DNA of 64,000 nt, from the NCBI GenBank assembly GCA_963714425.1, contig CAVQOI010000006.1, positions 99,629 to 163,628 of the forward strand, written 5' to 3'. Below, in pieces: positions 12,038-41,172 of this stretch. Below the pieces are notes generated by a model. That model saw nothing but the letters and a program-made list of their open reading frames with translations, was not told the DNA's origin and made no database searches. The translations under genes were made by a program, and so were the position numbers. Source of the stretch: an uncultured Chloroflexia bacterium (GTDB lineage Bacteria; Chloroflexota; Anaerolineae; Anaerolineales; UBA4823). Position 1 is the stretch's first letter. Each line of letters begins with the position of its first letter.

Positions 12038-12274
12038 TTGGGAGGGTATAATGATGGTGTGGCCAATTCAGAGTATGTTGCTTTTCGGAATCGATGGGAA
12101 GCTGTAAAAAAAATCGAGATAGTGGAAGCACAAACCGCTACCGTCGAATTGCGCTGGAAACAACTCAATGGAATTCTTCGCCTGGCAAGGGGATTGAACT
12201 TGCGTCTCGACTCTTCTGATGATTCGGAGTTTATTGTCTTCGAACGTTGGGTTAAGTTAAGGGAGGCAGGTTGA
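12038..12274 (+). CDS. small hypothetical protein (candidate antitoxin-like partner)
   Basis: 78-codon ORF with a non-ATG start. Its stop overlaps the TTG start of the next gene (TTGA at 12271-12274). The stretch is locally AT-richer. Confidence 0.4.
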   Translation: MGGYNDGVANSEYVAFRNRWEAVKKIEIVEAQTATVELRWKQLNGILRLARGLNLRLDSSDDSEFIVFERWVKLREAG

Positions 12275-12843
12275 AAACCCCAGATGAGCTCTCGCCACTC
12301 CTGGAACCATTATCTGCCTTACAAAAACTGATCTCACATTTTGGCGAACGGGGCATCATCATAGGGGGAATCGCCGCCAGTCTTCTAGGCAAGCCCCGCT
12401 TAACAGCAGATATCGATGCATTAATCCTCTTACGGACAGAAGAAATACATGAGTTGATTTCAGTAGCTCAGGGGGAAGGGCTGACAACAAGGATCGATAA
12501 CGCAGCGGAATTTGCGCGCAAGAATCGCGTACTATTACTCACCCACCAAGCCAGTATGACGAATATTGATATTTCTTTAGGTCTATTACCATTTGAGGAA
12601 GAAGCGGTTGCCCGAAGTTTGGTTTTTGATGCTTCTGGGATATCCATACGCTTGCCTACCCCGGAGGATCTAATCATCTTTAAGGCGGTTGCTCACCGTC
12701 AGAAAGACCTGATGGATATCGAATCCATTATCGAGAGTCACCCTGATCTAGATCAGGAGCGCATTGAGAATTGGGTAAAACAATTTGCAGACGCTTTGGA
12801 TATGCCTGAGATTTGGGATGATCTCGCAGATCTGCTTATGTAA
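12271..12843 (+). CDS. minimal nucleotidyltransferase-fold protein (DUF6036 / AbiEii-like N-terminal motif)
   Basis: IIIGGIAASLLGKPRLTADIDALI matches the GG-x-A...G-x-x-R-x-T-x-D-x-D nucleotidyltransferase motif. The protein is 190 aa. Confidence 0.55.
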   Translation: MKTPDELSPLLEPLSALQKLISHFGERGIIIGGIAASLLGKPRLTADIDALILLRTEEIHELISVAQGEGLTTRIDNAAEFARKNRVLLLTHQASMTNIDISLGLLPFEEEAVARSLVFDASGISIRLPTPEDLIIFKAVAHRQKDLMDIESIIESHPDLDQERIENWVKQFADALDMPEIWDDLADLLM

Positions 12844-12934: not shown

Positions 12935-13429
12935 TTAATTGTTGCTTGCGATCTCTTTCGCTTTGCCTTCGATCACCTTGGGTGTCTCAACTTTGCTGAC
13001 GGTTATGCGCTTGGGCTTGACCTCTTCGGTCTTGGGTAGGTGTAAGCTGAGCACGCCGGCCTCGAAGCGGGCCTGGATGGCGTCCGACTGCACATGCGTG
13101 GGCAGGGTCAGCCTGCGGGTGAAGCTGCCATAGCGGCGCTCGCGCAGGTGATAAAGTACGCCCTCTTTCTCCTCTTCACCTTTGAACTCGCCCTTGAGGG
13201 TCAAGGTCTTGCCGCTGAAGGTGATATCCAGGTCATCTGGGTTGATGCCCGGCAGCGAGGCTCTGACAACGTACTCGTCATCGGTCTCGGCGACGTCCAG
13301 GGCCAACTCGTCTGAAAGCGACTCCCACTCCCAGGAAGGGCCAAAGTAAGCGTCGTTGAAGAGCCGGTCCAGAGTGCTGCGCAACGACATCATTTCGCGG
13401 AAAGGATCTCTACGGGTAATGTTGAACAT
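12935..13429 (-). CDS. Hsp20/alpha-crystallin small heat-shock protein
   Basis: 164 aa with an alpha-crystallin core (ALDVAETDDEYVVRASLPGINPDDLDITF...GSFTRRLTLP...AGVLSLHLPK). Confidence 0.9.
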   Translation of the reverse strand: MFNITRRDPFREMMSLRSTLDRLFNDAYFGPSWEWESLSDELALDVAETDDEYVVRASLPGINPDDLDITFSGKTLTLKGEFKGEEEKEGVLYHLRERRYGSFTRRLTLPTHVQSDAIQARFEAGVLSLHLPKTEEVKPKRITVSKVETPKVIEGKAKEIASNN

Positions 13430-13578: not shown

Positions 13579-15021
13579 GTGTTGATATCTGTAATCAGAC
13601 CAGGCTTCAGGCAGGTCGGCGGGATCTCGTTCCTCGCAGGCGCGGCGATGCTGGCTTGCTTTGTCGGGATTTCCCGGCTACCCAGCTTGCGTGGTGAGCA
13701 CATGGCGTCTTATTTGAGCTTTTTTATGCTCGCCGGGTTAGCCTGCACCATAGCAGGCTTGCGTATGCGCCGCGACAGCCTACCCGTGGCTATCCTCTGG
13801 GGGTTTGCCATCCTGTTCCGTCTGCTGCTGCTGGCAAATACTCCCAGCCTCTCGGACGATGTCTACCGCTATATCTGGGATGGGCACCTCTTGAGCCAGG
13901 GGGTGAACCCCTATTCAGAGCCCGTTGACTCGCTCGAGCTATTGAGCTACGACATTCCTACGCGCCAGATGGTGAACCATGCCTGGATGGCTTCCCCCTA
14001 CCTGCCAGTCGCCCAGGTGTATTTCGCCGTCATCACCCGCATTGCCCCGCGCAGCGCCGTTGCCTTTCAGGTAGGGGCTTTAGCCATGGATTTGCTGACC
14101 GGCTGGCTGGTCATGGCAACCCTGGCGAAGCTGGGTTTGCCCCGCCAGGCAGCCTTGCTCTATCTGTGGAATCCATTGGTCGTGGTGGAGTTTGCCCATG
14201 GCGCCCATGTTGATGTGCTGATGCTGTGCCTGACCATGGCGGCGCTGTTAATCGCCGTATCAGGCTCCAACTCACCGCATCACCAGTGGGCTTCAGCGTT
14301 GTGCCTGGGGGCGGCGACTCTGACCAAGCCGCTGCCAGTGCTTCTGGTGCCCTTGCTGCTTTCTCGTTGGAGATGGCGGGGGTTGGCAGTTTATGTGCTC
14401 ACGATCACCAGCGCTTGCGCCCTTTTTGCCGCAGGTGCTGGATGGGGGTTGGTGGGAGAGCTGGATGGCAGGGGCGTATTCGGCGCGCTGCGCATCTACG
14501 CCAGCTATTGGAACTACAACGGCAGCCTGTACCATTGGCTGGAAGTATGGCTGAGCGGCTACCCCAGCCCGGGGGCAGTGCCGCCGCAGGTCGCCGGTGA
14601 GGCGACCGTACGCATCCTGCGCGCCATCACTGGGGGGATGACCCTGCTGGCAGCTCTTGGCGCAGGCTTGGCTACGCAGAGGAATTTAGACGATCGCAGG
14701 CTGGCAAGATTGGTATGGATCCCTTTTGGGACTTACCTTCTGCTGGCGCATACTCTCCATCCCTGGTACGTAACCCTGGTCCTGCCGTTCCTACCCTTCC
14801 TGGTTGCTGGTGCTGCAGAGCATTCCTCCCACAGCCGCTTCGTCTGGCCATGGCTGTACTTCTCGATTGCGGTCGGGTTGTCTTACGTCACCTATCTCGA
14901 TCCGCAGAACCCGCGCGAGTTCGACCTTGTCCGTCAGGTTGAATACTTCCCTCTTTATTTTGGTTTGGCATGGGCAGCCTGGCCATATGTTTGGCGGAGG
15001 GTGAGAATAAAACTTCAATAA
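13579..15021 (+). CDS. GT-C fold mannosyltransferase-like membrane protein (GT87/DUF2029-like)
   Basis: Polytopic protein with the SDDVYRYIWDGHLLSQGVNPYS loop motif typical of PimE/DUF2029-type enzymes. The true start may be an internal Met. Confidence 0.6.
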   Translation: MLISVIRPGFRQVGGISFLAGAAMLACFVGISRLPSLRGEHMASYLSFFMLAGLACTIAGLRMRRDSLPVAILWGFAILFRLLLLANTPSLSDDVYRYIWDGHLLSQGVNPYSEPVDSLELLSYDIPTRQMVNHAWMASPYLPVAQVYFAVITRIAPRSAVAFQVGALAMDLLTGWLVMATLAKLGLPRQAALLYLWNPLVVVEFAHGAHVDVLMLCLTMAALLIAVSGSNSPHHQWASALCLGAATLTKPLPVLLVPLLLSRWRWRGLAVYVLTITSACALFAAGAGWGLVGELDGRGVFGALRIYASYWNYNGSLYHWLEVWLSGYPSPGAVPPQVAGEATVRILRAITGGMTLLAALGAGLATQRNLDDRRLARLVWIPFGTYLLLAHTLHPWYVTLVLPFLPFLVAGAAEHSSHSRFVWPWLYFSIAVGLSYVTYLDPQNPREFDLVRQVEYFPLYFGLAWAAWPYVWRRVRIKLQ

Positions 15022-15148
15022 AACGAGTGATTTTAAACGAAAACAGCAGGTTTGTATACTATACTCTAGAACACCGTGTGTATCAATCCGTGGTAAGAAT
15101 GCGCAGGTTTGAACCGTCAATAAATCAGGTTTCAAAGATAGACAAGAG

Positions 15149-15658
15149 ATGGAGGGTGATTTTATGGGTACAGTCTTCAAGGAAACGCAAACGAGAGCGC
15201 CTCTGGGATGGATTGCAGCGTTGCGTATCGTGGTCGGGGTGATGATCTTGACAACATGGTTCAGCAACATGATGAAAGGATTTTATACCCCCGAAGGATT
15301 GTTAGATTTCTTCACGCATGTTTTCCCTCAATCCGAGAACCCGCTCGGATGGTACGCGGCGTTCATTAATAATGTAATCCTGCCGATCCGGGGCGTGTTC
15401 GCGCCCTTCCAGCTGGTTGCCGAATTTGCCCTGGGGATTGCCCTCCTCCTCGGCGCCTTCACACCGCTCTTCAGCTTGGCAGGCATCTTCTTTCTGCTCA
15501 ATACGTTCTTTGCCACCTATGGGCACGACTGGCCCTGGGCTTATGGGTTGCCAATTGCCATCCTGGGAGTGACTTTCCTGACGCGCGCTGGTAGGGCGCT
15601 GGGGATCGACGCGGCCCTGCTCACACGTTTTGGAGAGCGCGGGCGTCTGCTTTGGTAA
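15149..15658 (+). CDS. DoxX/DoxD-like small membrane protein
   Basis: About 165 aa with four predicted TM helices (LGWIAALRIVVGVMILTTW...). It sits between two glycosyltransferase genes. Confidence 0.5.
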   Translation: MEGDFMGTVFKETQTRAPLGWIAALRIVVGVMILTTWFSNMMKGFYTPEGLLDFFTHVFPQSENPLGWYAAFINNVILPIRGVFAPFQLVAEFALGIALLLGAFTPLFSLAGIFFLLNTFFATYGHDWPWAYGLPIAILGVTFLTRAGRALGIDAALLTRFGERGRLLW

Positions 15659-15661
15659 GCT

Positions 15662-17152
15662 ATGTTCATTGTTGAATCCCTGTATGGTATCGCATCTTTC
15701 ATCCTGGCAGTTTACGGCCTTAACAGCCTGTACCTGATCTGGCTTTACCTGAAATCCAGACAGCCCCGCCCGTCTCCACCGACGCTGGCATTTTGGCCGC
15801 GCGTGACCCTCCAGTTGCCTGTATTCAATGAGATGCACACCGTTGGTCGCCTTCTGGCGGCAATCAACGCTCTGGAGTACCCCCGCCACTTGCTGGAGGT
15901 GCAAGTGCTGGATGATTCTACCGACGAGACATCAGCCATTGTCGCCGCGCAGGTCGCCAGGCTGAGCGCGCACGGCCTGAAGATTGCCCACCTGCGTCGC
16001 CTGAACCGGCATAATTACAAAGCCGGGGCGCTGGCTGCTGGGTTACAGAGTGCGCGTGGTGATTTCATTGCTGTCTTTGACGCGGATTTCGTCCCGCCTC
16101 CGGACTATCTCAAGCGCGCCCTGCCCTGGTTTGCAGACACTCGTGTAGGCTGCGTGCAAGCCCGCTGGACTCACACAAACCGAGAATACTCCTGGTTCAC
16201 GCGCTTGCAGGCGTTGGCCATTGATGGACACTTTATCGTCGAGCAAACCGCCCGCTCGCGCCACCAGCTCTTTCTGAACTTCAACGGCACAGCGGGCATA
16301 TGGCGGCGCGCTTGCATTGAAGACTCCGGAGGCTGGCAGGCGGATACGCTAACCGAAGACCTTGACCTGAGTTACCGGGCGCAGCTCAAGGGTTGGCGTA
16401 TCGAATACCTGCCCGAATTGTGTGTGCCAGCTGAGCTACCGGTGCAGGTGGCTGCCTTCAAGCGCCAGCAGGCGCGCTGGGCTCGTGGCAGCCTGCAAAC
16501 CGCGCGCAAGCACGCCCTTCCATTGTTGCGCGCCCGGCTGCCATTGCGGATCAAGATTGAGGCATTGCTTCACCTGACACATTACTTCGTCCACCCGCTC
16601 ATTCTCCTGGCGCTCATCCTGGCTTTGCCCATGAGCCTGGCGCGTTCTCCGTTGCTGGCCTGGGCGCCTGTCCTCATCATAGCCGCCCTAGGACCGCCTC
16701 TGCTGTACCTGGTTGCAAGCGCTCCGGATGTACCCGGCGTGTGGCAACGCCTGGCATTGATCCCGGGGCTTGTGTTCCTGGGGATTGGATTATCGGTCAA
16801 TAACAGCCGGGCTGCGCTATTGGGGTTGCTGTCTAATTCCACAGGGTCTTTCCAGCGCACGCCGAAGTTTGCCCTTCACAATGTAGAGGATCGCTGGCAG
16901 CTCAGCCGTTATGCCCTGCGGCACGATTCCTGGGTATGGGTCGAGCTGGTCCTGGGTATCTACGCGCTGGTCTGCGTTCTCTTCTTTTCAGTACAACGCA
17001 ATTGGGGCTTTGTCCCCTGGCTGCTTCTTTATGCAGGTAGCTTTAGCTATGTGGTCTCGCTGGCGCTGGCGCAAACTGCCCAGCACGTACACTTGATCAA
17101 AAACAGGTCTGTAGGTGTTACGCCTGCGGGAACGATCGATGCCACCTGGTAG
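15662..17152 (+). CDS. processive family-2 glycosyltransferase (cellulose-synthase/CslA-like)
   Basis: D,D,D,QxxRW signature: VLDDSTDET, VFDADF, LTEDLDLSYR, KRQQARWARG. TM helices are present at both ends. Confidence 0.85.
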   Translation: MFIVESLYGIASFILAVYGLNSLYLIWLYLKSRQPRPSPPTLAFWPRVTLQLPVFNEMHTVGRLLAAINALEYPRHLLEVQVLDDSTDETSAIVAAQVARLSAHGLKIAHLRRLNRHNYKAGALAAGLQSARGDFIAVFDADFVPPPDYLKRALPWFADTRVGCVQARWTHTNREYSWFTRLQALAIDGHFIVEQTARSRHQLFLNFNGTAGIWRRACIEDSGGWQADTLTEDLDLSYRAQLKGWRIEYLPELCVPAELPVQVAAFKRQQARWARGSLQTARKHALPLLRARLPLRIKIEALLHLTHYFVHPLILLALILALPMSLARSPLLAWAPVLIIAALGPPLLYLVASAPDVPGVWQRLALIPGLVFLGIGLSVNNSRAALLGLLSNSTGSFQRTPKFALHNVEDRWQLSRYALRHDSWVWVELVLGIYALVCVLFFSVQRNWGFVPWLLLYAGSFSYVVSLALAQTAQHVHLIKNRSVGVTPAGTIDATW

Positions 17153-17161
17153 CTGCGTCCA

Positions 17162-20100
17162 TCAGGGCAGTTTATCCAGCTCGGCTTTGGCGCGGGTGGC
17201 TGCCTGTTCTAAGGATGCATCGCACGCGGCAGCTGCTTGAAACTCTGTGTTTGCCTGATCTGCCTGCCCTATAGCGTAGTAGACCCATCCTAACGTGAAG
17301 TGTGCCTGTGCCCATTGAGGGGCGCGCTCGACAATTTTTTGGGCGAGGTCGAGTGCCAATTGAGGTTCGCTGCTATCGCCTGAGAGGCTCGTAGCCAGGT
17401 AGCTGCGGGCTTCCAGCAGGGGAACGAAAAGCTCAGCGTAGTCTCCTGAAATATTCACCCCATATTCCGGAAGCAGTTTGCCTGCTTGCTCGTAGGCGCT
17501 CAGGGCAGCTTCGCCATCCCCACGGCGCAATGCAATATCTCCCAGCAGGGTCTGGGCAGCGGCGTTTGACGGGTATCCTTGCAGTGCAAGCTGGAGCTCA
17601 CCTTCTGCTGCCGTGAGATTGCCGCGCTCGAGCTGGATCACACCCTGGTCATAATGCGCCAACGATTGGAATACCGGCGGCAGGGAGCTGGATTCCAGCG
17701 CAGTCTGCAAGAGATCTTCTGCCTCTTGTAGTTGTCCATTCCCCAGATAAAACTCGGCAGCCACCAGGTGGGCGAGCATGTCATCCGGATATTTTTCCAG
17801 CAAGCTTGCCATGACTTCAGCTTGCTGTTCATAATCCCCCTGAGCGGCATAGGCAGAGGCTGGCAGCGAAAAATACAGCGCCTGGCTCGCCCCAAGCGTG
17901 GCTGCTTGGGAGTAGTTTTTCGCCATGTCACTCAGGTCGCAGCGCTTATAAGCCACCTGACCCAACCCCAGATATCCCACAGGATCATCGCCATTCAGGT
18001 CGACCAGTGCCTGGTACGTACCCTGTGCATCCTGCAGCCGACCAACGCGAGAGTACAGGCCGGCAAGCTGGTTGAGCAACAATGAATTTTCGGATGCGCT
18101 GACTGTAGCAGCTTCTAGCTCCAGGATCGCCTCTTCGACGTTTCCCAATCTGGCAAGTAGCAATGCAACCTGGGAGCGCAGCTCGGGCGAGTCCTGCAGC
18201 GCCAACGCCTTGCGGTATGATTCTACAGCGCCTTCCAAATCCCCGTTTGCCGCCAGAGCATCCCCCAATCCCGCGTGCGCCACGTACATCCCTGGATCGC
18301 CATCGATTGCCTGCTGGTACTCATGGATTGCAGTTTCGGTCTCGCCGCGCTGCGAATAGATGAGGCCAAGGTAAGCATGAACATTGGGGTCTTCCTGGAT
18401 GCTGAGCGCTTGCTGGTATGCAGCGATGGCTTGATCGATCTCCCCCAGCTTTTCGTAGGCATTCCCCAATGAGACGCGTGCGCTGGCATCTTCCGGATCG
18501 TCCTGAGCCACCCTTTGGAATTCATCGCGCGCTTGGGCAAATTCGCCTTTCTCGTAATACAGCGATCCCAGCGCATACCGGGCGCTGCTCATCTTCGGGT
18601 CGAGGCTGATCGCCTGGGAGAGGGCGCTTTGTGCTTCTACATTGCGATCTTGTAGCAATTGAGTCACACCCAGAAGATAGCTGGACGAGGCGGCGTATGG
18701 TTCGAGCTTCGCTGCCACGCTGAACTCGGCTTCAGCTTGCTCATAATTGCCTTGCTCCCAGTAATACCCGCCAAGCAGCAGGTGCGGGTCTGGGTCGCAG
18801 GGCGATAGGCTTGCAGCCGTTTCAAAGGACTGCCTGGTCTTCTGCTCGTCCTCCAGCTTCAGATATGCCAGGCCCAGGAGTGTGAATGCAGAGCTATTCT
18901 CTGGTTCCAGCTCGCTCCAGCTTTTGAATTCTCGCACTGCATCTTCAAGCCGACCGTTCTGCAGGGCGATGCTGCCCAGCCCGCGGTGAACGTCAGGTAA
19001 ATCGGGCTGCAATTCTTGAGCCTGAAGGAACGCCTCGCGCGCCTCGTCCAGTTTCCCGGCTTGCAGGGTTGCGTCTCCCAGGGCAATGAGGGATGCAGCT
19101 GTTTCCACATCCTGGTTGCTTTGCTGCTCTTGGAGGACTTCGATGGCTTGGTCGTACTGCGATTGCGCCGGGGCGTCTTGCCCGGATGCAGCATACAAAG
19201 AAGCCAGCATCAATAATGCATCTTCATCCTGGGAGTCGCGTTCTACCGCCGCTTGAGCAGCCTGGATTGCCAGATCGATCTGCCCAGACTGGCTGTACAG
19301 CCCGGCCAGAAGCGTGTGGTTGGCAGGCTCATTGGGTTGCAGGGTTGCCGCCTGCTTTGCCGCAGCAATGGCGTCTTCAAGGCGCACCGCGGGAGAGCAC
19401 ACCTGAGGATAAAGAACCGCCAGGTTGTAATAAACTTCTGGGAGCTGGGGGTTCAAGGCGCGTGCGGTTTCGAGATCTTGCACCGCCTCGATGAAGCGAT
19501 TGCTTTGAGCCAGCCCCACTGCCCTTTGCATGTAGACCAATTCCGCCCCTGGTGAGGCTTGCTTGCCGCCCGTACCGTTATCCGATGTGGGTGGAGCGAC
19601 CTTGGAGAGAGCTTTGTCGTACAGAATCAGGGCTGTCTCCAGGTCACCCTGCGATTGGTACGCCAGGGCTAATACTGCTTCGGTGATATAGGCTACTTGC
19701 TCCGGCCCGTTCTCTACGAAAAGATTGAGCTCGTCCACCATGCGCGGCACGCGCAGGTATTTGAAGAAGTCACCAAGATCAACCTGCGCCGGTCCGCCAG
19801 CCTCTGCCAGCCCAGCAGCTTTGGCGGTTTGCAGGAATATGTTGCTGCCCGGTGTGGCGGGGGTCGGGGCCGGTTCGAGCATCTCGATTGATGGGCTGAC
19901 CCCCAGATCATCGTACCAGCCCCAGATCAGGATCGCAGCCCCCAGCTTTTTGCCGGCTGCCTTGGCCAACTCAGCATCCGTATAGGTCTCTCCCAGGCGC
20001 ACCACATTCACCTGTCCCCCCAGGTCAGACAGCTCGCTCTCCAGCTGGTCGAAGATGCGCCGCCCGAAATCCACATTAATCGAAGCCTGCGAGCCGTCGA

Positions 20101-21316
20101 AATCTGCGATTGCCAGGGTATACCCGCCAGACTGGCTGGTTGGCGGAGGTGCAAACAGACTCAGACCACCCAGGCTCAAGAATATCACCATGCCCACTAC
20201 CAACAAGAAGACCGCTCCGGCTGTCAGCCCTCCCCAGCGCGGTATCTTCCGCAAGGTTGCAAGCGTCTCATGCACCAGGCCCTTGCCTTCTGCTGCCAAT
20301 TCAGGGAGCGGGACCTGCGAGTTCTGCGAGGTCTGGGGGGAGGTGGGACCATGTGCCTGCGATGGGAATTCCGTTGAGACCGTCTTGATCGCCGGCTCTG
20401 GGGCACGGATTTCCAGCGAACTATCGACCTCAGTCGCCCCTTCAAGGACGATGGGTTTGGGTTCTTCCGCCTCGAGATCGACATCCAACCCTCTGAGAGC
20501 CCGGTCAAACGATCCGGCGAACTGGCTCAGGGTTGGGTAACGCTTGGAGGGGTCTTTGTGGAGGGCGCGCAGCAAAACTGCCTCGGCTGCCAGCGGCAGG
20601 TTGGGGTTTAGCCCGCGCGGAGCGGGTGGATCTTCAGTGAGGTGCTTCATCAAGAGCGCAGTTGCCGTCTCCCCGATGAATGGCACCCGCCCTGTTACCA
20701 TTTCATACGCCATAATGCCCAGCGAATACTGGTCGCTTCGCCCATCCACGCTCTTGCCTGACGCCTGCTCGGGCGACATGTAAGCCGGTGTGCCAATCAC
20801 GCCGCCGGTCATGCTGATCTGCATTGATTCATGCAGCAGTTTGACGATGCCAAAATCGCTGATCACCGGCTCATCCTGGCTGGTGAACAGGATGTTTGCG
20901 GGTTTGATATCCCGGTGCACGGCCCCATGCGTGTGGGCATAATCCAGCCCTTCCGCTAGGGAAATTATGTTCTGCGCCACTAAGCCAAGCTCAGCCAGCT
21001 GGCCCTGGCGGAGCTGCTCCGCCAGGCGGTCTTTAAGCGTCCCGCCTTCCAGGTATTCCATGACCATGAAAGGCTGGTCGTTAAAGATGTCAAAATCGTA
21101 CAGGCGCACGATGTGAGGATGGCGCAGTGCAGCCACCAGGCGGGCTTCCTGGCGGAAGCGGTCGGCGAAACCGCTCTCCTGCGCCAGGTGTGGGTGGATA
21201 ACCTTGATCGCCACTCGGCGCTCCAATAATTCATCCGCCGCTTCGTATACAGCTGCCATTCCCCCGCTGCCCAGCGAGCGGATGACGGTATATTTGCCGA
21301 AGGTTGTGGGCTTCAT
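17162..21316 (-). CDS. Ser/Thr protein kinase - TM - extracytoplasmic domain - long TPR array
   Basis: Hanks kinase motifs (GSGGMAAVY, VAIK, HRDIKPANILF, DFGIVK, GTPAYMSPEQ). One TM helix (AVFLLVVGMVIFLSLGG). About 900 aa of TPR-like repeats follow. Confidence 0.9.
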   Translation of the reverse strand: MKPTTFGKYTVIRSLGSGGMAAVYEAADELLERRVAIKVIHPHLAQESGFADRFRQEARLVAALRHPHIVRLYDFDIFNDQPFMVMEYLEGGTLKDRLAEQLRQGQLAELGLVAQNIISLAEGLDYAHTHGAVHRDIKPANILFTSQDEPVISDFGIVKLLHESMQISMTGGVIGTPAYMSPEQASGKSVDGRSDQYSLGIMAYEMVTGRVPFIGETATALLMKHLTEDPPAPRGLNPNLPLAAEAVLLRALHKDPSKRYPTLSQFAGSFDRALRGLDVDLEAEEPKPIVLEGATEVDSSLEIRAPEPAIKTVSTEFPSQAHGPTSPQTSQNSQVPLPELAAEGKGLVHETLATLRKIPRWGGLTAGAVFLLVVGMVIFLSLGGLSLFAPPPTSQSGGYTLAIADFDGSQASINVDFGRRIFDQLESELSDLGGQVNVVRLGETYTDAELAKAAGKKLGAAILIWGWYDDLGVSPSIEMLEPAPTPATPGSNIFLQTAKAAGLAEAGGPAQVDLGDFFKYLRVPRMVDELNLFVENGPEQVAYITEAVLALAYQSQGDLETALILYDKALSKVAPPTSDNGTGGKQASPGAELVYMQRAVGLAQSNRFIEAVQDLETARALNPQLPEVYYNLAVLYPQVCSPAVRLEDAIAAAKQAATLQPNEPANHTLLAGLYSQSGQIDLAIQAAQAAVERDSQDEDALLMLASLYAASGQDAPAQSQYDQAIEVLQEQQSNQDVETAASLIALGDATLQAGKLDEAREAFLQAQELQPDLPDVHRGLGSIALQNGRLEDAVREFKSWSELEPENSSAFTLLGLAYLKLEDEQKTRQSFETAASLSPCDPDPHLLLGGYYWEQGNYEQAEAEFSVAAKLEPYAASSSYLLGVTQLLQDRNVEAQSALSQAISLDPKMSSARYALGSLYYEKGEFAQARDEFQRVAQDDPEDASARVSLGNAYEKLGEIDQAIAAYQQALSIQEDPNVHAYLGLIYSQRGETETAIHEYQQAIDGDPGMYVAHAGLGDALAANGDLEGAVESYRKALALQDSPELRSQVALLLARLGNVEEAILELEAATVSASENSLLLNQLAGLYSRVGRLQDAQGTYQALVDLNGDDPVGYLGLGQVAYKRCDLSDMAKNYSQAATLGASQALYFSLPASAYAAQGDYEQQAEVMASLLEKYPDDMLAHLVAAEFYLGNGQLQEAEDLLQTALESSSLPPVFQSLAHYDQGVIQLERGNLTAAEGELQLALQGYPSNAAAQTLLGDIALRRGDGEAALSAYEQAGKLLPEYGVNISGDYAELFVPLLEARSYLATSLSGDSSEPQLALDLAQKIVERAPQWAQAHFTLGWVYYAIGQADQANTEFQAAAACDASLEQAATRAKAELDKLP

Positions 21317-21409
21317 GAAAAGTCTGTGGCAAACATGCTCAATATTTTTCCTTGGATCTTCTTTAAGAGCCTCAACGTACTTCCTACCGGCAGCAGGAAA
21401 TCTGTGTTC

Positions 21410-23113
21410 TCATCGAGGCCCCCTCTTCATTTTTCTTAATTCTAATTTCAGGCGTACTTTGACATCGTTATCCACGAAAAGCGAGCCGTGGTGTTGTTGC
21501 ACGGGATGGATTTCTGAGCCTTCCATCACAGTGCTGTGCTCTGGCACAGTGGCATCGCCGCACTCCTGTGCGACCAGATTGAGCTTGGTCCACTCTCCGG
21601 AGTTGCTGCGCTCGACGTTAATGCGCCCTATTGTCTTGAGCCCATAGCCAAAGACGGAAATCGAGGGGATGCTGACCCGCTTGCCCAGCTCTTTGCGGAA
21701 CTGGCGCGCCTGGCGCAGCAGCGGAAGGCTGTCTTCAGGAAGCCAGCCCTCGTCGTCCAGGACATGGACGGGTTTGCCCTGCTGGTCGAAGACACAGTCG
21801 TAAACCGGCAGGATCTGGTACGTCGAAGGGAAGGAGATCAGCACGCTGCGCAGGCGGTCGCCAAGCATACCAAAGGGCAACAAGTCTGCCTTCATGGCTA
21901 CGTTGGCGATCGCCTTGGGCACACCGTAGTGCGGGCCGCCCAGGAGGATCACGCGCTCTACTTTTTTCTTTCCACCTAGACGTTCGATATAATAGCGGCT
22001 GACCAGGCAGCCTAAGCTGTGGGCGATCAGCACAACCGGGCCAGGCTGCTTCCAGGCTTCGATTGTTTCTGCCAGGCGCTGGGCAGCCAGGCGCACGTCC
22101 AGCCGCCAATCGTAAGCAAACTCAAGCAAGTCATCATTGAGCTTGTACCCCAGGCTCTCCACCAGGAACTCACTCATGCGCCCATATGTATCGAGTTTAA
22201 TCAAATTTGGCACGATGACCACTTCGCTGACGATGTTGCGCGCCTCGATGGGTGCCTCATCCGGTAGGGCTAGTACTTCTGGATCGCTGAATAACTTGCG
22301 CACGTTAGGCCATATGCGCTCTTCCCCAATCCACAGCTCCGATCCCATCAATCCTGGGACGAACACGACAGGTGGGTGGGCAGTCGCAACCTGAGCTGCA
22401 GCTGCGTCCACTATGGTTAGATCATCTGGGCGGATCGCTTCTTTAAACACAAGCTGGGCAGGACCAATCCGGACGGTATCCCCATTCTCCAGCCTGGTTT
22501 CAGAGATCATAGTTGATCCCATCCAGGTGCCGTTCGTGCTGCCCAGATCGCGTATCACCACCCCGCTGTCCCGGCGCTCGATTTGGGCATGTTTGCGAGA
22601 CGCTTTTACATGGTCGATGACGATATCGTTCTCCAGGCCGCGACCGATGGTCAGGCGGTCCTGGATCAAGGGTAACTCCCAGGTTTTTTCGGGAGTGTGG
22701 ATCACCACGCGCGCCCGGCTGGTGTCGTTGATCGTCATGGCGACCGACTCCTGGGCAATGGTTTGCTCCAGCTCGTTCATGGTATCGATCGAGACCAGGT
22801 CGAGTTCCTGGGTCTGGTGCGGCACCTCGTAGCGCAAGACGCTGTTGCCAATCCGGATGACATCCCCGGGAGAGAGCAGCGCACGCGTGACGCGCTCGCC
22901 ATTCACCTGGATGCCGTTGGCAGACTCCAGGTCTACCAGGGCGGCACCTTCCTGGCTGTTCTCCAACCTGGCGTGAGAACGGGAAACCTTGCTATCCATT
23001 AATAAAATATCACTGGACGGATCGCGCCCGATGTCGATTTGGGTTTTCGCCAGCTCGAAGGCTTGCTCGCTGCCGTCGGCAGCTGTTAATACCAGTTTTC
23101 CATACGCCTGCAT
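21410..23113 (-). CDS. FHA-FHA-alpha/beta-hydrolase (LCAT-family lipase/acyltransferase) fusion protein
   Basis: ATG 23113 follows a GAGGAGG RBS. There are two FHA cores (IGRDPSSDILLMDSKVSRSHARL...NGIQVNG and IGRGLENDIVIDHVKASRKHAQI...STNGTWMG). The C-terminal part has VFVPGLMGSELW, YDWR, an AHSLG elbow and GDATVP. Confidence 0.8.
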   Translation of the reverse strand: MQAYGKLVLTAADGSEQAFELAKTQIDIGRDPSSDILLMDSKVSRSHARLENSQEGAALVDLESANGIQVNGERVTRALLSPGDVIRIGNSVLRYEVPHQTQELDLVSIDTMNELEQTIAQESVAMTINDTSRARVVIHTPEKTWELPLIQDRLTIGRGLENDIVIDHVKASRKHAQIERRDSGVVIRDLGSTNGTWMGSTMISETRLENGDTVRIGPAQLVFKEAIRPDDLTIVDAAAAQVATAHPPVVFVPGLMGSELWIGEERIWPNVRKLFSDPEVLALPDEAPIEARNIVSEVVIVPNLIKLDTYGRMSEFLVESLGYKLNDDLLEFAYDWRLDVRLAAQRLAETIEAWKQPGPVVLIAHSLGCLVSRYYIERLGGKKKVERVILLGGPHYGVPKAIANVAMKADLLPFGMLGDRLRSVLISFPSTYQILPVYDCVFDQQGKPVHVLDDEGWLPEDSLPLLRQARQFRKELGKRVSIPSISVFGYGLKTIGRINVERSNSGEWTKLNLVAQECGDATVPEHSTVMEGSEIHPVQQHHGSLFVDNDVKVRLKLELRKMKRGPR

Positions 23114-23302
23114 GGGATCCTCCTCAGTATCAATCTCTAGAAGGGGTGGTGGGGTGGCATGGGAGGAGAGTGCCCACAACGCAAACCCCAAATTGCCCCG
23201 CTTTGTCGGGCGCTTGCAATAAGACGAATCTAAGTCTATTTTATCCGAAAATTACCAGATTTCTAGTGCGCTCTTGTGTTATGGCTTTCCGTGACGAAAT
23301 TG

Positions 23303-23331
23303 TTGACAAGACCCCTCGAATTTTATAAGAT
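23303..23331 (+). promoter_or_regulatory. sigma70-like promoter candidate for the KAP NTPase gene
   Basis: TTGACA (23303-23308), a 17-nt spacer, then TAAGAT (23326-23331), about 20 nt upstream of the ATG at 23350. Confidence 0.35.
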
Positions 23332-23349
23332 ATATATGGGAACCTACTA

Positions 23350-26300
23350 ATGGCCAGACCCAGTCCCGATCGCCCGACTACAGAAGACCGGCTGAATTTC
23401 CGCAGCTATGTTTTACCCATCACGCGCACCATCCGCGATGCCGCCCGCGCTGACCAGCTCCCGCTGACCATTGGCATCTTCGGTCGCTGGGGCTCGGGTA
23501 AGACCAGCCTGATGCGCATGGTGGAGCAGGAGCTGGGCCCCACGCCGGAGGAGCGCCGCATTTCCGACCAGCGCAGCCAGGCAGCCCAGCGCGCCTTGCG
23601 CTGGATGGTGCCCATCCTGATTGTGTGGCTGTTGCTGATCCTGGCTGGCTTGTTCTCGACCCTGGTTGCAGCGCTTTGGGTCCAGGCTTATACCGGGCTG
23701 GGTGACCTGCAGTCACAGGTGCTCTGGGCGTCAGCCATGTTTGGGGCGTTCGGGGGATGGGTAGCGGCGTTCTATGTTGTTTGGGCGCGCGCCGTTATTG
23801 AGCAAGACCTGGAACCCAAGTACATCCTGAACCTGGCGCTGCGTCCATTGACCGGTTTGTTGGCGGGCGTTCTGGTCTTTTTCCTGCTCTCAGGGGGTGA
23901 TAGCCTCTTTGCTTCTGCGCGTCTCGCTGGCCTGAATCGCACAGTCTACATTCTCCTCGCCTTTGTGAGCGGATTTTCTAATTGGCTTGATTTATTACTA
24001 TCCGCACGCTTATCACCCTGGATCGAGCGCCTGCGGAGGCGCAATGTCAAGCAGGCGAAGCAGGCGGTGGATCGCAAGGCGACTGCCCAACGTGTGGAAA
24101 CGCGTGGCGATTACCAGGTGATCTGGTTCAACGCCTGGAAGTTTGCTAATGAAGACGAACTGTGGGCGGCACTGCTCCAAGAGGTGCTGCGCCAGATCAA
24201 GGTCAAAGCCGTCGGGCGCGAGCGCTTGCGTATCAAGTGGCAGCTGTGGAAACGCAGTATCGACTGGAGCTCCGGTTTTCGCGATGTTGCCCGCAAGCTG
24301 TTGCCCGCCGCCGGCAAGACCCTGCTGGCAGCCGGATTCGCAACCCTGGGAGGTCTGGTGGCTGCCTGGGCGGTAAGCAGCCGCTATGGTGAGCAGATCG
24401 GGCAGACTGCCGGCGCGGTGGGAGCGGTGCTCACCGGGCTGTTACCGATATCAGCCTGGCTGCGAGCTAACCTCGTCACCCCGCTGGCTGACCTGGATTT
24501 AGATAAATATCGCAAGAAAGCCTCTTACAAGGATCACCTGACTTTCCTGGCAGAGTTCAGCAATGAGTTCCGCGGAATCGCCCGCATCGCCCGCGGCGAC
24601 GGCAACCCGCTGGTGCTCATGCTCGACGACCTGGACCGCTGCCTTCCGGAGCAAGCTGTCTCTGTTTTAGAGGCGATTAAGCTCTTCATCAGCGAGGATG
24701 CCCCCGTAGCCTTTATGATCGGCGCCGACCAGGAGTTCATTGAGCGCGCCATCGAGGTCAAGTACGAGAAGATGATTGCCCGCACAGATACCGACCCGGA
24801 ACGCCGCGAGCGCTTCGCCCGGTTGGGTAGGGAATACCTGGAGAAGATTGTGCAGCTCTCCTTCCACCTGCCGCCCATTGAAGAGGGCTTGATCGACAGC
24901 TTCATTGACGATGTTTTTAAAGACAACACCTGGGTGGTGGATCACTCCCACATCTTCGCCGCCGGTCTGCAGCCCAACCCGCGTCAGGTCTTGCGCGTGC
25001 TCAATATCTATAATTTTATGATCGAGCTGGCTCAGGAGAAGAAGTGGCTGTATGCCAAGATCATCCAGCCAGACGTGCTTGCCAAGGCGGTCGTGGTGCA
25101 GTACCGCTGGCCCGAATTATGGCGGAGGCTGGAGTCTCGCCTGGACTTGCTCGCCGCCATTGAGAAATTCTTCCGAGAGGGAGCCGTGCCCACCGATGCC
25201 GCTCTGGCCGCGATCGTCGAGACCTTCGCCAAAGAGGCAGACCTGCGCAATTTGCTGACCGTGAAAGAAAGTGGGTCGCTGGCGGGTGTGGACCTGCGCA
25301 AATATATATATCTCTCGGAGAGCACCCAAACCCGGCCTGAACAAGAAGAGAAACCCACACAGCCGCCTGAGAAAGTTCCGGTGAAACGGGTGCGGCGTAA
25401 AGCACCCACCCAGGAAGATGAAGCTGCCGAGAGTCTAAACGTCGCCCTTGAGAAAACCACTCAGGCGTTGGGAGAGGTCAACCGCCTGCGCCCAGCCTGG
25501 CGGCAGCTGGGAATTTCTCAAAGACGGATCACGACCTACGAGAATCGCCTTAAGCGCGCCCTTACAGACAAAGATCTGCAAGCAGCGCAGACCGCCCAAA
25601 GCGAATTCCAAAAGGTCCTGGAGACCTCCCAGGCAGGTCGCGTTCAGAAGATTGAGCAGCGACGGGTTGAGCTGCGTCAGAAGGTTAAAGAGCTGGGTTC
25701 GGGTGGCGCTGATTCGGCGCTGCTTGGCTTGATGGAGGATTATCTAGAGCGCGCCGCGAAAGCCATCGAAGCTAACGACCTGGAAATGGCAAGCGTGCAT
25801 CTTGAGGATGCCGAATCCCTGGCTGGCAGCGCCCAGGCAGACCTGGCAGCCCGCAAATCCGACGAAGTTGAACGAAAAATCGAAGCCAGGCTCTCCAAAG
25901 ATGGGCGTCTGGTCTTCGAGCGGGCGGTGACCTACCAGCCGGTGGAGATCCGCATGGAGATTCCCGGCAGAGAGAAAGACGGTGAGATCATCGCCTACTC
26001 CCCGCGTGGAGAGAACCGCTCTCCTGTGCCTGGGTTGCGTGGCCGCTTGTGGGACGTCAAGGACCGTATCTTGCAAGGCGAAGTCCCCGCAGAGGATAGC
26101 CACTGGTTGCGCGTACAGCTTGGAGAAGCTCTGCGCCCGGTGCTGCAGCTCGCCGATCCAGCGTCACCGGATAATTTCCGCTTGCGCCTGTCTTCGGTCA
26201 ACCAGACCATCGATGACCTGCCATGGGAGATGGCTCTTACCAGCGAAGGTCACGACCTGCCTCTGGGGCTAGACCCGCGCCTGGCGGTGGTGCGCGGCGC

Positions 26301-26877
26301 AGTCACGCCGACCAGTACCCCACCTCTGGATCTGGAGAGGCTGCAGCCGAAAATGCTGGTCTTCTACCTCGGTGCGGACGATAGCAGCCCGCTCACCCTG
26401 CTGCGCCAGATCCGCTTTCCCTTTGAGGTGCAATTCCTGTCTGGTTTGAAGCGTCCAGAGATCTACGCCATCTTTCAAAAGGAACGCCCAATCCTGGCGC
26501 ACTGGATCTCCGCCGAGGTGAGCACGAGGCAAACCGGAAAAGGCAGTACGGGAATAAACTTCAACGTCAGTGGTTTCGACGTTGAGATCGATCCGCGTGA
26601 TGCAGGGCTGATGGTATTTGATTTTCCTGGAGGTCAGGATATGGCGCGTGCATTGGTGGGGTATGGGATGCCTGCCGCGCTGTCCTGGCAATTGGGTGTC
26701 AATGATGCCGCCGCCGGTGCTTTCTACTATCCCTTCTACAACGCACTGCTGCGCTCCGGGCAGCCCGAGTTCGCCGTCACCGAAGGGCGGCGCGCCATAG
26801 CTGCCGCGCTGGGGGATGATTCACCCCTTGCCCTCTCGCCGGTGCTCTATTTGGCAGGTAGCGCTCAGCCGGCTTGA
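23350..26877 (+). CDS. KAP-family P-loop NTPase (TM-inserted) - coiled coil - CHAT-like C-terminal domain
   Basis: Walker A GRWGSGKTS. About 4+2 TM helices are inserted before and after VIWFNAWKF. Walker B is LVLMLDDLDRC. The middle is charged and coiled-coil. The C-terminus has FRLRLSS...DDLPWEMAL and ...AGAFYYPFYNALLRSGQPEFAVTEGRRAI, reminiscent of CHAT domains. Confidence 0.75.
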   Translation: MARPSPDRPTTEDRLNFRSYVLPITRTIRDAARADQLPLTIGIFGRWGSGKTSLMRMVEQELGPTPEERRISDQRSQAAQRALRWMVPILIVWLLLILAGLFSTLVAALWVQAYTGLGDLQSQVLWASAMFGAFGGWVAAFYVVWARAVIEQDLEPKYILNLALRPLTGLLAGVLVFFLLSGGDSLFASARLAGLNRTVYILLAFVSGFSNWLDLLLSARLSPWIERLRRRNVKQAKQAVDRKATAQRVETRGDYQVIWFNAWKFANEDELWAALLQEVLRQIKVKAVGRERLRIKWQLWKRSIDWSSGFRDVARKLLPAAGKTLLAAGFATLGGLVAAWAVSSRYGEQIGQTAGAVGAVLTGLLPISAWLRANLVTPLADLDLDKYRKKASYKDHLTFLAEFSNEFRGIARIARGDGNPLVLMLDDLDRCLPEQAVSVLEAIKLFISEDAPVAFMIGADQEFIERAIEVKYEKMIARTDTDPERRERFARLGREYLEKIVQLSFHLPPIEEGLIDSFIDDVFKDNTWVVDHSHIFAAGLQPNPRQVLRVLNIYNFMIELAQEKKWLYAKIIQPDVLAKAVVVQYRWPELWRRLESRLDLLAAIEKFFREGAVPTDAALAAIVETFAKEADLRNLLTVKESGSLAGVDLRKYIYLSESTQTRPEQEEKPTQPPEKVPVKRVRRKAPTQEDEAAESLNVALEKTTQALGEVNRLRPAWRQLGISQRRITTYENRLKRALTDKDLQAAQTAQSEFQKVLETSQAGRVQKIEQRRVELRQKVKELGSGGADSALLGLMEDYLERAAKAIEANDLEMASVHLEDAESLAGSAQADLAARKSDEVERKIEARLSKDGRLVFERAVTYQPVEIRMEIPGREKDGEIIAYSPRGENRSPVPGLRGRLWDVKDRILQGEVPAEDSHWLRVQLGEALRPVLQLADPASPDNFRLRLSSVNQTIDDLPWEMALTSEGHDLPLGLDPRLAVVRGAVTPTSTPPLDLERLQPKMLVFYLGADDSSPLTLLRQIRFPFEVQFLSGLKRPEIYAIFQKERPILAHWISAEVSTRQTGKGSTGINFNVSGFDVEIDPRDAGLMVFDFPGGQDMARALVGYGMPAALSWQLGVNDAAAGAFYYPFYNALLRSGQPEFAVTEGRRAIAAALGDDSPLALSPVLYLAGSAQPA

Positions 26878-35200: not shown

Positions 35201-37317
35201 AGCGGGTCCCAGGCACAGGTGTACACATCTACACCGTCCGGCTGGACGTAGTCCTGCTTCTGGGGAGCTTCGCCATTCGGCGAGCCCCAGGTGTGGCAGC
35301 GTAGCTCCACCGGCTGGGAGATCCACTCCGCCAGGACTGTTCCTTCGATGCGGTCGTTATCGGGGTCTACCGATCCCGTGATGCTGCCGATGTGGATGGT
35401 GCTGGTGTAGCCATTGTCCACCAGCCCGTACACCCAGTCGCCTTCCTGAATATCCGGATGGCTCGGTACCCAGTCATCGCCTTGAGGCTCGAAGCCGGGT
35501 TGTCCTCCCCACCAGGGGATGTTATAGGTCTCCACCTGGGCATGCGCTTTTTCGGTGACCCCATCGCTTTCGGTTACGGTGATCCACACCGTGTGCCCGA
35601 GTTCGTAGCGCCCCTGGACCCAATCATGGGCGACGTTGGTTGACATGAGTAGGTCGGGTGACTGGTATCTACGGTGGAACACAGCCGTCGCCAGGTCCAT
35701 GGTGGTCTCGTAGCGCACGTGTCCCTGCCCGCCGCGCGGGATATCATTGAATGTGACCGTGTAATACCCTGAGGCATCCACCTGGGCGTCCTTGCCCGAG
35801 TAGCCATTCAGCTCGACGCGCAGCCATGAGCCGGGGTCCACACCCAGCTGGCCTGTTACCTGGTCGGTCTGCGAATTGCTGGCAACATCGAAGGGATCGG
35901 GCACGTGGATCTCCACGGGCATCAGCCCGGCGCCAGCCGTGACGGTAAACGTGTATCCGGGCCAAACCGGGCCGATGTCGGGCATGCTCCAGCAGCCGCC
36001 GCAGCTCGGGTCTGCGTAAGCGGTGTAGGTCTCGCCTTGGTTCAGCACGCTGACGGTGCTATCGGGTTGTGCGCTGCCCCATGCATCGGAATGATCGGTG
36101 CCCACCCACATCTCAAACTGGTCCACCTCGCCGCCGCTGAAAGCCACGTCGGTGTAGGTGTTGTCCGCGGGGTTGGTCTCGCCTTCAGGGGCGCTGATCT
36201 CGACCGTGTTGGTGTACCACACCATGCGCTGACCAGGAGTGTCAAGCGGGGCATCGAATCGGATGCGCGTCCCCCAACCCGGTTCCATCCGGTTGAGCTG
36301 CCAGGATAGTGTGTGGTTTCCCGGATCCTCCACAATCAAGTCGATCCACTCCCAATAGTCGTGCCCCCAGCCGGCAAAGGTGGTGGAGAGCGGGTAGGTA
36401 TCGGTGACGATCGGGGAGTAGACGCCCTCGTCGCCCACATTGCTCAAGTCGATCTCGTAGTGCAGCCAGCCGTCGCCGTACCACTCGTGATATTTGCTTA
36501 CGCGCAGGTTTGGGCCGTGTTCGTACACCTGCTGCTCGTCGCAGGCGGTGTTGTTATAGGGCGTATCCTCTTCGGCATCAGGCGCGATAGTGGCGCAGTT
36601 GAGCAGCGCCGTGCCCGGCGCGGTCGATTCCAGAATGAGCAGGCGGTAGGTCAGGCCAAAGCCCCAGCTCACGCCAATCTCGCCCACGTCCCAAACGATA
36701 ACGTCATCCATCACCAGGACGGGGTCAATCGGCTGCCCGTTATAGTCGTAAGCGCTGCCCTCCACGTAAGCCGTTCCGGCGGGCAGCGTGTCGGTCAGGC
36801 GCCCGCTGACGAGGATGTTGCCGCTGTTCCAGTAATCCAGCTTGTAGCCGTACTCGTTTCCGGGCGTCAAAACGCCGTTATTGAAGTACTTGCCCAGGTT
36901 CAGGTCGGCGCGTGGGTTGCTGATGCGCGCCTCTTCATTCATACGCACGTTGTTATCCGGGTTAATATCTCCGGCGGTGCTGACCTCCACCCGGTTGGAA
37001 AGGGTCGTATTGAGCGGCAGGGCTGGGTCGGCAAGCAGGCGCAAGTTGAGATTGGTGCAGTTCTGGCCGGGCATGGAAGGGAAGTACAGCTGCAATACCC
37101 CATCATTCACGGTCTGTTCGCTCCAGAACACCTCCCCCCACCAGTTGCGCGGCTCGAGGCTGACGAAGGTGGTCGAGACCGGCAGGGTATCCGTCAGCCA
37201 GACCGGTCCGGCGGCGGCGAAGCGGTCATTGCAGTATTGCACGTCGTAGACGAACTCTTGCCCGGCGACCACATCCCCGGGGTTGGGCCATTTGTCCACG
37301 CGGATATCGATGTCATC
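32215..37317 (-). repeat. internal colinear super-repeat within the giant gene (unit A ~34342-37317, unit B ~32215-34341)
   Basis: The same domain order occurs twice at protein level: DUF11 - DUF11 - about 330-aa CGGCW module - DUF11. The CGGCW codons at 35989-36003 and 33409-33423 are exactly 2580 nt apart. The copies are divergent, so the duplication is old. Confidence 0.6.
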
Positions 37318-40689: not shown

Positions 40690-41172
40690 GTTTAACCTCT
40701 TACCTAGACTGATTGACTTACGCAAAGTTACTCCCAATTGCCGGAGAGAATTGATGCTGAGATCAACCCGTTCCGAGGGAAATCTATACCATCAAGTCAG
40801 CTTGGTAACATTAATTTTTTTCTTACCGACGATTTACCGTTTAAATCCCGCCCGAAACAATCGTTTACGACCAACACTAAGCTGCCAAAGGCTGTTTCTG
40901 CCTTGGCTGGCAAAGCGTTAGCAACGCACATCTAATATTAGTACAATTTTACACTAATGTGGACGCAAGTCAATAAACCTTAAGTAGGGGAGGCCTGTCT
41001 CATCCAGGGCGTGGTTCAGCATCAACTTCTTCCCACGCGCGCACTAAGGGTAAGTCCTGTTGAGCACAAATAAGCAGTTGCAACAGCTGCGGGTCATTTC
41101 TGCAAGCGACCACGCTGCCGGCAGTGACATTCACAACTGTCGCTAACAGCTATACTTACTGGGGAAATGTGC

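Follow-up and report, generated by a model that had tools for sequence, protein, structure and literature searches.

A receptor-type Hanks kinase and an FHA-FHA-LCAT-type lipase as a likely conserved signaling pair in Chloroflexota, beside an apparently unrelated KAP NTPase gene

Three large multidomain genes adjoin in a 64,000-nucleotide stretch of DNA (the window) from an uncultured Chloroflexia bacterium of the Anaerolineales lineage UBA4823 (assembly GCA_963714425.1, contig CAVQOI010000006.1, forward-strand positions 99,629 to 163,628), raising the question of whether they act together and, if so, to what end. They encode a receptor-type Hanks Ser/Thr kinase carrying a long TPR array (kinase-TPR), a soluble lipase-like protein with two N-terminal FHA domains (FHA-lipase) and a KAP P-loop NTPase with a CHAT-like C-terminal domain. 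A first-pass annotation of the window had joined the three into one conflict module. The genes themselves and nearly all of the domains that it described were borne out by the open reading frame (ORF) coordinates and by Pfam, and the two spacings that it gave, 93 nt from lipase to kinase and 236 nt from lipase to KAP, are exact (Table 1). Comparisons with other genomes, however, indicate a different grouping. The kinase and the FHA-lipase likely form a real signaling pair to which the KAP gene is unrelated; taken singly, the claims that the pair is real and that the KAP gene stands apart from it are each highly probable on comparative grounds.

Relatives of the FHA-lipase were confirmed in at least 221 species genomes in a scan of one genome per species, a lower bound limited by the search pattern. 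For 80 loci of ~20 kb each (cited here by L numbers), the sequences were fetched, and adjacency was counted by ORF calling and clustering in the 76 loci with a called lipase ORF. In 52 of the 76 loci, the gene next to the lipase encodes a Hanks kinase and is read from the same strand, immediately downstream in 26 and immediately upstream in another 26, in comparison with 3 of 609 background ORFs located more than two genes away. The kinase lies within two genes of the lipase in seven further loci. No kinase was seen in three loci cut by a contig end on one side, and none was found within two genes in 14 loci with both sides visible. Several of the 17 loci counted as lacking a kinase contain truncated or frameshifted kinase fragments. 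A reciprocal metagenome search with the kinase ectodomain showed the lipase directly upstream in 4/4 orthologous loci, these being the loci whose kinase domain reaches 50% identity and whose sequence extends far enough upstream. The more distant ectodomain-kinase paralogues of the metagenome search have no lipase upstream. Thus, the functional link that the first-pass annotation had drawn between the kinase as phospho-writer and the FHA-lipase as phospho-reader is supported by a widely conserved gene pair.

In 17 loci, the gene directly downstream of the lipase encodes an orthologue of the kinase-TPR protein (~1150-1460 aa), with a kinase domain 55-66% identical and an ectodomain 30-49% identical, and the gaps between the orthologous lipase and kinase genes range from an overlap to ~250 nt. 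At L089, which has the closest lipase homologue (68% identical), the next gene encodes a 70%-identical kinase, and its start overlaps the stop of the lipase gene; the gene upstream of this lipase encodes a PAS/GAF protein, and no KAP gene is present there. Co-transcription of lipase and kinase is likely in the window genome, because the short gap between them has no terminator-like site. A neighbor-joining tree of the lipases separates a clade with the kinase downstream (mostly of the kinase-TPR type, and including the window protein) from a clade with the kinase upstream. Because the split in the lipase tree tracks gene order, the pairing appears to be old and inherited with the gene.

Homologues of the FHA-LCAT protein (~47-50% identical) also occur in Acidobacteriota, at L072 (a Bryobacterales metagenome-assembled genome (MAG), on a 4.76-Mb contig), L079 and L086. 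The lipases of L072 and L079 group together in the tree and have kinases nearby, and that of L086 lies elsewhere in the tree with no kinase within two genes. Their occurrence suggests either an old transfer or a distribution beyond Chloroflexota. Two genomes contain two FHA-lipase paralogues each (L018/L022 in MAG JACRMI01 and L030/L040 in MAG JADFRQ01). The partner kinases of the paralogues differ, one MAG having a kinase-TPR protein and a 616-aa kinase and the other a kinase-upstream copy and a copy without a kinase.

The KAP gene was not retained as a member of the pair. A KAP gene was found by tblastn in none of the 80 lipase loci, and neither the FHA-lipase nor the kinase-TPR gene lies near the KAP gene in any of seven other KAP-family contexts (0/7). 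The neighbors in these contexts are PPK2/SMC, DnaG-RpoD, SLFN_AlbA_2/YceG, HSP20 with GerE (twice), LacI and PDDEXK_5; no partner gene recurs among the seven except HSP20 in the two closest relatives. In these relatives (L006 and L007), the order HtrA-GerE-HSP20(-)-KAP(+)-AOR, where AOR is aldehyde:ferredoxin oxidoreductase, is collinear with the window, and the flanking genes are 73-88% identical to those of the window by tblastn. The genes of the ~9.8-kb block that separates HSP20 from KAP in the window, kinase and lipase included, have no tblastn match in L006 or L007. Since HSP20, KAP and AOR follow one another in the relatives that lack the block, the juxtaposition of lipase and KAP marks a lineage-specific rearrangement junction. 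Judged by gene order, the KAP gene is an independent solo gene, located beside the pair only through rearrangement in this lineage, and the 236-nt spacer is a junction created by that rearrangement rather than a shared regulatory region. The first-pass annotation had pointed to a sigma70-like promoter candidate in this spacer. Such a site is indeed present at 23303-23331 (+), and another at 23265-23238 (-). However, the number of these sites in the region equals the shuffle expectation, and they are therefore uninformative.

The FHA-lipase has Pfam matches to two FHA domains (E 1.2e-37) and to LCAT (PF02450; E 1.8e-13, 51 bits against a cut-off of 21). The phosphothreonine (pThr)-binding residues of FHA1 (G29/R30, S44/R45/H47 and N66/G67) and of FHA2 (G157/R158, S172/R173/H175 and N194/G195) are all invariant or at least 90% conserved across 117 sequences, and the best matches of the FHA domains are the mycobacterial proteins GarA, FhaA/Rv0020c and Rv1747. 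In the alignment of 117 homologues, D520, H536 and H542 are invariant and form a candidate Ser-Asp-His triad with the predicted nucleophile Ser366. The AlphaFold2 (AF2) model is confident and compact, with a predicted local distance difference test (pLDDT) value of 88.7 and a predicted template-modeling (pTM) value of 0.89. Foldseek comparisons of the hydrolase domain showed the closest similarity to LPLA2 (4x92, E 1e-17, TM-score 0.63 on the target), followed by LCAT (E 6e-14). No transmembrane (TM) segment was found by hydropathy, and no signal peptide is present. The family comprises hundreds of proteins of ~561-568 aa with 47-69% full-length identity across Chloroflexota classes; more than 100 best matches are 50-69% identical over the full length, span 561-572 aa and are nearly all labeled Chloroflexota. 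Because all homologues begin at the position of the ATG at 23113, this codon was taken as the start. The protein thus resembles LCAT and LPLA2 in its above-threshold Pfam match, its AHSLG nucleophile motif and its fold, whereas it differs from them in being bacterial and cytoplasmic, in its N-terminal fusion to two FHA domains and in its low sequence identity (17-22%). Its activity may be that of a phospholipase A or an acyltransferase acting on a glycerophospholipid.

The kinase-TPR protein has a strong Pkinase match (E 3.7e-47, aa 9-260) with the HRDIKPANIL and DFG catalytic motifs, and matches to many TPR families over ~aa 640-1384. Since hydropathy shows a single TM helix at aa 364-382, the ~1000 residues that follow it, including the TPRs, are predicted to be extracytoplasmic. 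A non-TPR domain of ~250 aa separates the helix from the TPRs, and this ectodomain and the TPR array are accordingly both predicted to lie outside the cell. The ectodomain (aa 396-640) contains an invariant IWGxYD motif. It also occurs, at 37-39% identity, in two metagenome loci (L092:3642-4364 and L094:1943-2677) without a detectable kinase domain upstream, and it may be an independent extracytoplasmic sensor module that has no Pfam model.

A candidate physical link between the two proteins lies in the juxtamembrane linker of the kinase. Of 51 partner kinases, 38 have a T-x-[VILMF]-[DE] motif in the 90 aa that follow the kinase domain, whereas 500 shuffles of the same linkers yielded 6.8 +/- 2.4 with a maximum of 14. 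The motif is located 22-32 residues past the kinase domain in linkers that are otherwise variable. It reads ATEVD in the window protein, ATLVE or ATLLD in other kinase-TPR orthologues and ATEVD or STEID in the kinase-upstream clade. The pT-x-x-D/E type is a classical FHA ligand, as for Rad53 FHA1. Given the conserved juxtamembrane Thr and this FHA specificity, T295 would be an autophosphorylation site on which the FHA domains of the lipase dock. In the proposed sequence of events, the ectodomain and TPR array would sense an extracytoplasmic cue and thereby activate the kinase, which would then autophosphorylate T295 and possibly also phosphorylate a Thr in the inter-FHA linker of the lipase (T118). 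Binding of the FHA domains to these pThr sites would draw the lipase, a soluble protein, to the cytoplasmic side of the membrane, relieve its autoinhibition, or both. A membrane glycerolipid would subsequently be deacylated or transacylated, leading to remodeling of the envelope lipids. This specific docking and recruitment scheme is plausible, falling a little short of probable.

The closest known parallel is found in Mycobacterium tuberculosis, where PknF, encoded in the same operon as the FHA-FHA-ABC exporter Rv1747, positively regulates it according to passages in PMC3138270 and PMC8339232. Both arrangements place the gene of a membrane Hanks kinase beside that of a two-FHA protein with a membrane-directed output, and both have conserved Thr residues in the inter-FHA linker; in addition, some of the Chloroflexota clusters include a 3xFHA-ABC exporter of the Rv1747 architecture. 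They differ in that the output here is a soluble LCAT/LPLA2-type lipase, whereas Rv1747 is a transporter, and in that the kinase here has a huge predicted extracytoplasmic ectodomain and TPR array. The phylum also differs, being Chloroflexota with some Acidobacteriota. The best-supported reading of the comparisons is a PknF/Rv1747-like phospho-signaling cassette whose output would be a cytoplasmic phospholipase or acyltransferase. Literature searches did not find the FHA-LCAT lipase or its pairing with a kinase described. The pair is apparently undescribed and would add a new output domain and an unusual sensor to the theme of Hanks kinases with FHA effectors.

The exporters of the Chloroflexota clusters combine three FHA domains with ABC_tran and ABC2_membrane (900-1100 aa) and stand beside the pair in ~10 loci, among them L016:11689-14520, L064:4230-7583, L019, L025, L027, L042 and L050. 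A single kinase may govern two membrane outputs gated by FHA domains in these loci. In Caldilineaceae (L068:13396-16329, L073 and L081), a shorter partner kinase is followed by a ~975-aa STAND-ATPase-TPR protein. In an Anaerolinea-like clade (L077:11707-14445, L067, L078, L080 and L083), the gene after the lipase encodes an adenylate cyclase-NB-ARC-TPR protein. TPR signaling proteins therefore recur around the pair in different forms.

Hanks-kinase signaling in bacteria is known mostly from Actinobacteria and Firmicutes, and to our knowledge few direct outputs from a kinase to an enzyme have been defined. The pair amounts to a concrete circuit proposal that runs from an extracellular TPR sensor through the kinase and a pThr docking motif to the FHA domains and the lipase, and its conservation extends across Chloroflexota, a large phylum that is mostly uncultured and has been little studied. 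If the proposal is true, the lipase would be the first phosphothreonine-controlled phospholipase or acyltransferase in bacteria and an entry into the regulation of an unusual envelope. A bolder combination is unlikely. It would have the kinase with its giant extracellular TPR sensor directly recruit and fire the LCAT-type phospholipase as a Chloroflexota-wide phospho-switch for lipid remodeling or for controlled killing or fragmentation within filaments, a bacterial counterpart of eukaryotic signaling from receptor kinases to phospholipases. Separately, it would make the KAP protein with its dead CHAT domain an immune sensor of novel architecture, built on a membrane-embedded NTPase.

Several points weigh against the reading as a phospho-signaling cassette. 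About 14 of the 76 loci have no intact kinase within two genes, and the lipase can thus exist without an adjacent kinase. The TM counts of the kinase orthologues vary from 1 to 3 in a crude hydropathy scan, so that the topology of the TPRs is uncertain for some. The juxtamembrane motif might be a general feature of Chloroflexota kinases, the control being ~5 clear non-partner kinases. Phosphorylation, FHA docking, which lipid serves as substrate and whether the enzyme is activated or inhibited are all points that we infer. The lipase fold also resembles the type VI secretion system phospholipase toxin Tle4 (Foldseek E 4e-10), making a toxic, membrane-damaging role possible. Finally, the label 'housekeeping' for the pair would rest on context and conservation rather than on universality across the phylum.

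The likeness to Tle4 bears on the alternative that survives best, in which the pair serves regulated self-destruction: the kinase would trigger the phospholipase to damage the cell's own membrane, as abortive infection or as programmed lysis or fragmentation in filaments. Phospholipase effectors and Ser/Thr kinases do occur in known defense systems, two genomes have paralogous pairs, and in some clades the pair is succeeded by a STAND/TPR or cyclase-NB-ARC-TPR gene. In a PADLOC search, the kinase matched the PD-T4-6, MAD6 and PglW models (PD-T4-6/MADS E 2.8e-93). However, these matches arise through the kinase domain alone; the housekeeping PknB model of NCBIfam scores 317 bits on the same region and is equally good, and the lipase has no PADLOC match. 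The KAP protein matches QatA and PifA far below the cut-offs (PADLOC/NCBIfam). The PADLOC and NCBIfam matches were rejected as defense evidence because they reflect generic similarity of kinase and KAP domains. A Pfam scan of the window genes and neighbors showed no defense island or mobile element around the pair. Recurrent neighbors are MgsA/RarA, a histidine phosphatase (His_Phos), EamA, HAD, CNNM/CorC and MacB-type ABC components. The very high conservation and constant length of the lipase, a gene order congruent with the lipase tree and these housekeeping flanks argue against self-destruction, which is rather improbable, and equally against the defense framing that the first-pass annotation had given the pair.

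A second alternative, decidedly less probable, is that the lipase is an acyltransferase in an envelope glycolipid or polysaccharide pathway together with the adjacent glycosyltransferases (GTs), the kinase being merely a regulator of that pathway. The pair shares its rearranged block with GT87-like, DoxX-like and GT2 genes, PMT_2-type transferases lie further upstream, and at one other locus (L011) homologues of the GT87-like and GT2 genes lie less than 10 kb from the lipase. However, this is the only one of the 80 loci with the GT genes in common; the GT genes, moreover, are read from the other strand and are not conserved as neighbors.

The module proposed in the first-pass annotation, in which kinase-TPR, FHA-lipase and KAP-CHAT-like protein would be the sensor, writer, reader, NTP switch, caspase-like module and effector of one NTPase-based conflict or defense system, fares worse still. 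In its favor, the three genes adjoin, the set of domains suits a system of this kind, and the KAP domain resembles QatA, PifA and RdrA and belongs to a superfamily fused to effector- or sensor-like domains (FGE-sulfatase, TIR). Co-occurrence in unrelated genomes was checked and showed no synteny from either side; in the closest relatives, the KAP gene occupies the same position without the pair, no mobile-element or defense genes surround the pair, the QatA score is far under its cut-off with neither QatBCD nor RdrB nearby, and the CHAT-like domain lacks a catalytic dyad, as described below. A single three-gene system is thus very improbable, and the locus illustrates that a local rearrangement can produce a plausible-looking 'defense module'. 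Two named systems were considered for the KAP gene and rejected. For Qat (QatABCD), the QatA match reaches 139 bits against a cut-off of 600 and covers aa 247-513 only, and no QatBCD genes are adjacent, the neighbors being the FHA-lipase and AOR genes. For RADAR (RdrA-RdrB), the similarity is one of fold in the NTPase part only, and no RdrB deaminase gene is nearby.

The KAP_NTPase assignment itself is secure at the Pfam level (PF07693; E 8.4e-24, 84.8 bits against a cut-off of 20). For CHAT (PF12770), the window protein stays under the gathering score, with 16.2 bits against 24 (E 0.0074). Pfam matches to CHAT were nevertheless obtained in 3 of 9 KAP family members (best E 3.4e-9), and a profile of the C-terminal domain matches the SAVED-CHAT structure 8tl0 (E 5.7e-7). 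The full-length AF2 model is of moderate quality (pLDDT 69.7, pTM 0.40) and was therefore used for domain-level fold matches only. In Foldseek comparisons with this model, the best Protein Data Bank (PDB) matches are TPR-CHAT/Csx29 of Craspase (E ~1e-6), and the NTPase part matches RADAR RdrA (E ~3e-4). In the alignment to 8tl0, the catalytic His of 'FIGHGT' is unmatched and pairs with 'liaaka' (AHWISAEV in the window protein), and the catalytic Cys of 'LNACCT' is unmatched and pairs with 'ldvprs' (FDFPGG in the window protein). No invariant Cys is present across the alignment of the nine-member family. Without the His/Cys dyad, the domain is predicted to be a pseudo-protease acting as a scaffold or binding module. 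Thus, the homology behind the CHAT-like call of the first-pass annotation stands, whereas its active caspase-like module does not.

In comparison with CHAT proteases (the TPR-CHAT protein Csx29 and SAVED-CHAT), the C-terminal ~330 aa are similar in fold and profile and differ in that the GHG His and NAC Cys positions are not conserved. In comparison with KAP NTPases of the QatA, PifA and RdrA-like type, the protein shares TM helices between Walker A and Walker B and a partial HMM similarity to QatA and PifA; it differs in its unique C terminus of a coiled coil and a dead CHAT-like domain and in a family of 9 clusters that is always solo and found in variable contexts. The full-length family is tiny, with eight other 90% clusters that are 35-67% identical, and the remaining matches have only the KAP domain in common and are mostly FGE-sulfatase fusions. 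The architecture of a KAP NTPase with a dead CHAT domain, together with the patchy distribution, would fit a conflict or sensor role for the KAP protein on its own. A 2020 eLife paper on conflict systems names KAP only twice. Among 110 listed KAP NTPases (P0011-P0120), most are fused to FGE-sulfatase (PF03781), with rarer fusions to TIR, NACHT-like and EAD domains, and the FGE-sulfatase-type proteins with a named source are mostly labeled Chloroflexi or Anaerolineales. These fusion proteins look like a large, variable sensor-type family apart from the CHAT-like branch.

The remaining caveat of the first-pass annotation was that the genes might adjoin by chance, kinase and FHA genes being common in such genomes. 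Hanks kinases and FHA proteins are indeed numerous in Chloroflexota, and some 20-kb loci contain several extra kinases. Chance as the reason for the adjacency of kinase and lipase is nevertheless practically dispelled by the excess of adjoining kinases over background, by the reciprocal search and by a pairing kept in two ancient clades and in the Acidobacteriota loci L072 and L079.

Table 1. Positions of the genes, spacers, domains and motifs in the window
Feature	Nucleotides	Residues	Strand	Description or basis
Kinase-TPR gene	17162..21316	1384 aa	-	Receptor-type Hanks Ser/Thr kinase
Kinase domain	20537-21292	aa 9-260	-	Pfam Pkinase; followed by the juxtamembrane linker
Juxtamembrane motif A-T295-E-V-D	20423..20437		-	Candidate autophosphorylated pThr-x-x-D FHA docking site (putative)
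Kinase TM helix	20171-20227	aa 364-382	-	Single hydrophobic helix, hydropathy
Kinase alpha/beta ectodomain	19397-20131	aa 396-640	-	Conserved, 30-49% identical in orthologues
Kinase TPR array	17165-19396	to aa 1384	-	Pfam TPR families
Lipase-kinase spacer, 93 nt	21317..21409		-	No terminator-like site in terminator scan
FHA-lipase gene	21410..23113	567 aa	-	Cytoplasmic FHA-FHA-LCAT/LPLA2-type lipase or acyltransferase (predicted)
FHA1	22826-23101	~aa 5-96	-	Pfam
Inter-FHA linker		between FHA1 and FHA2	-	T118 invariant, T131 near-invariant
FHA2	22442-22744	~aa 124-224	-	Pfam
Alpha/beta-hydrolase domain	21431-22378	aa 246-561	-	Pfam LCAT, Foldseek
Predicted nucleophile in AHSLG	22016-22018	Ser366	-	Invariant in homologues
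Lipase-KAP divergent spacer, 236 nt	23114..23349		.	Putative rearrangement junction; a divergent HSP20 gene precedes KAP in L006 and L007
KAP gene	23350..26877	1175 aa	+	KAP P-loop NTPase; independent solo gene outside the pair, judged by gene order
KAP Walker A	23473-23511	aa 42-54	+	Translation
KAP inserted hydrophobic helices, 4 + 2	23614-24000, 24319-24462	aa 89-217, 324-371	+	Hydropathy
KAP Walker B	24610-24642	aa 421-431	+	Translation
KAP long helical region	25417-25857	aa 690-836	+	Coiled-coil-like, AF2 model
KAP beta-rich and CHAT-like domain	25882-26874	aa 845-1175	+	Predicted pseudo-protease; profile and Foldseek
Block of GT87-like, DoxX-like, GT2, kinase-TPR and FHA-lipase genes, ~9.8 kb	13579..23191		.	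Between HSP20 and KAP
HSP20 gene	12935-13429		-	Bounds the ~9.8-kb block

The wider surroundings in the window include envelope glycosyltransferases, an HtrA protease, a DUF11 surface protein and AOR. The DUF11 protein is encoded by a giant 2840-aa ORF (32215-40737, -) with DUF11 repeats and DUF7619, and is probably located at the cell surface. An ORF of 1169 aa (44415-47924, +) has no Pfam match at E <= 1e-5. Between GerE and HSP20, a 190-aa ORF (12271-12843, +) encodes a DUF6036/DUF2204/AbiEii nucleotidyltransferase-like protein, similar to the nucleotidyltransferases of type IV toxin-antitoxin systems, which has no counterpart at the same position in L006 and L007.

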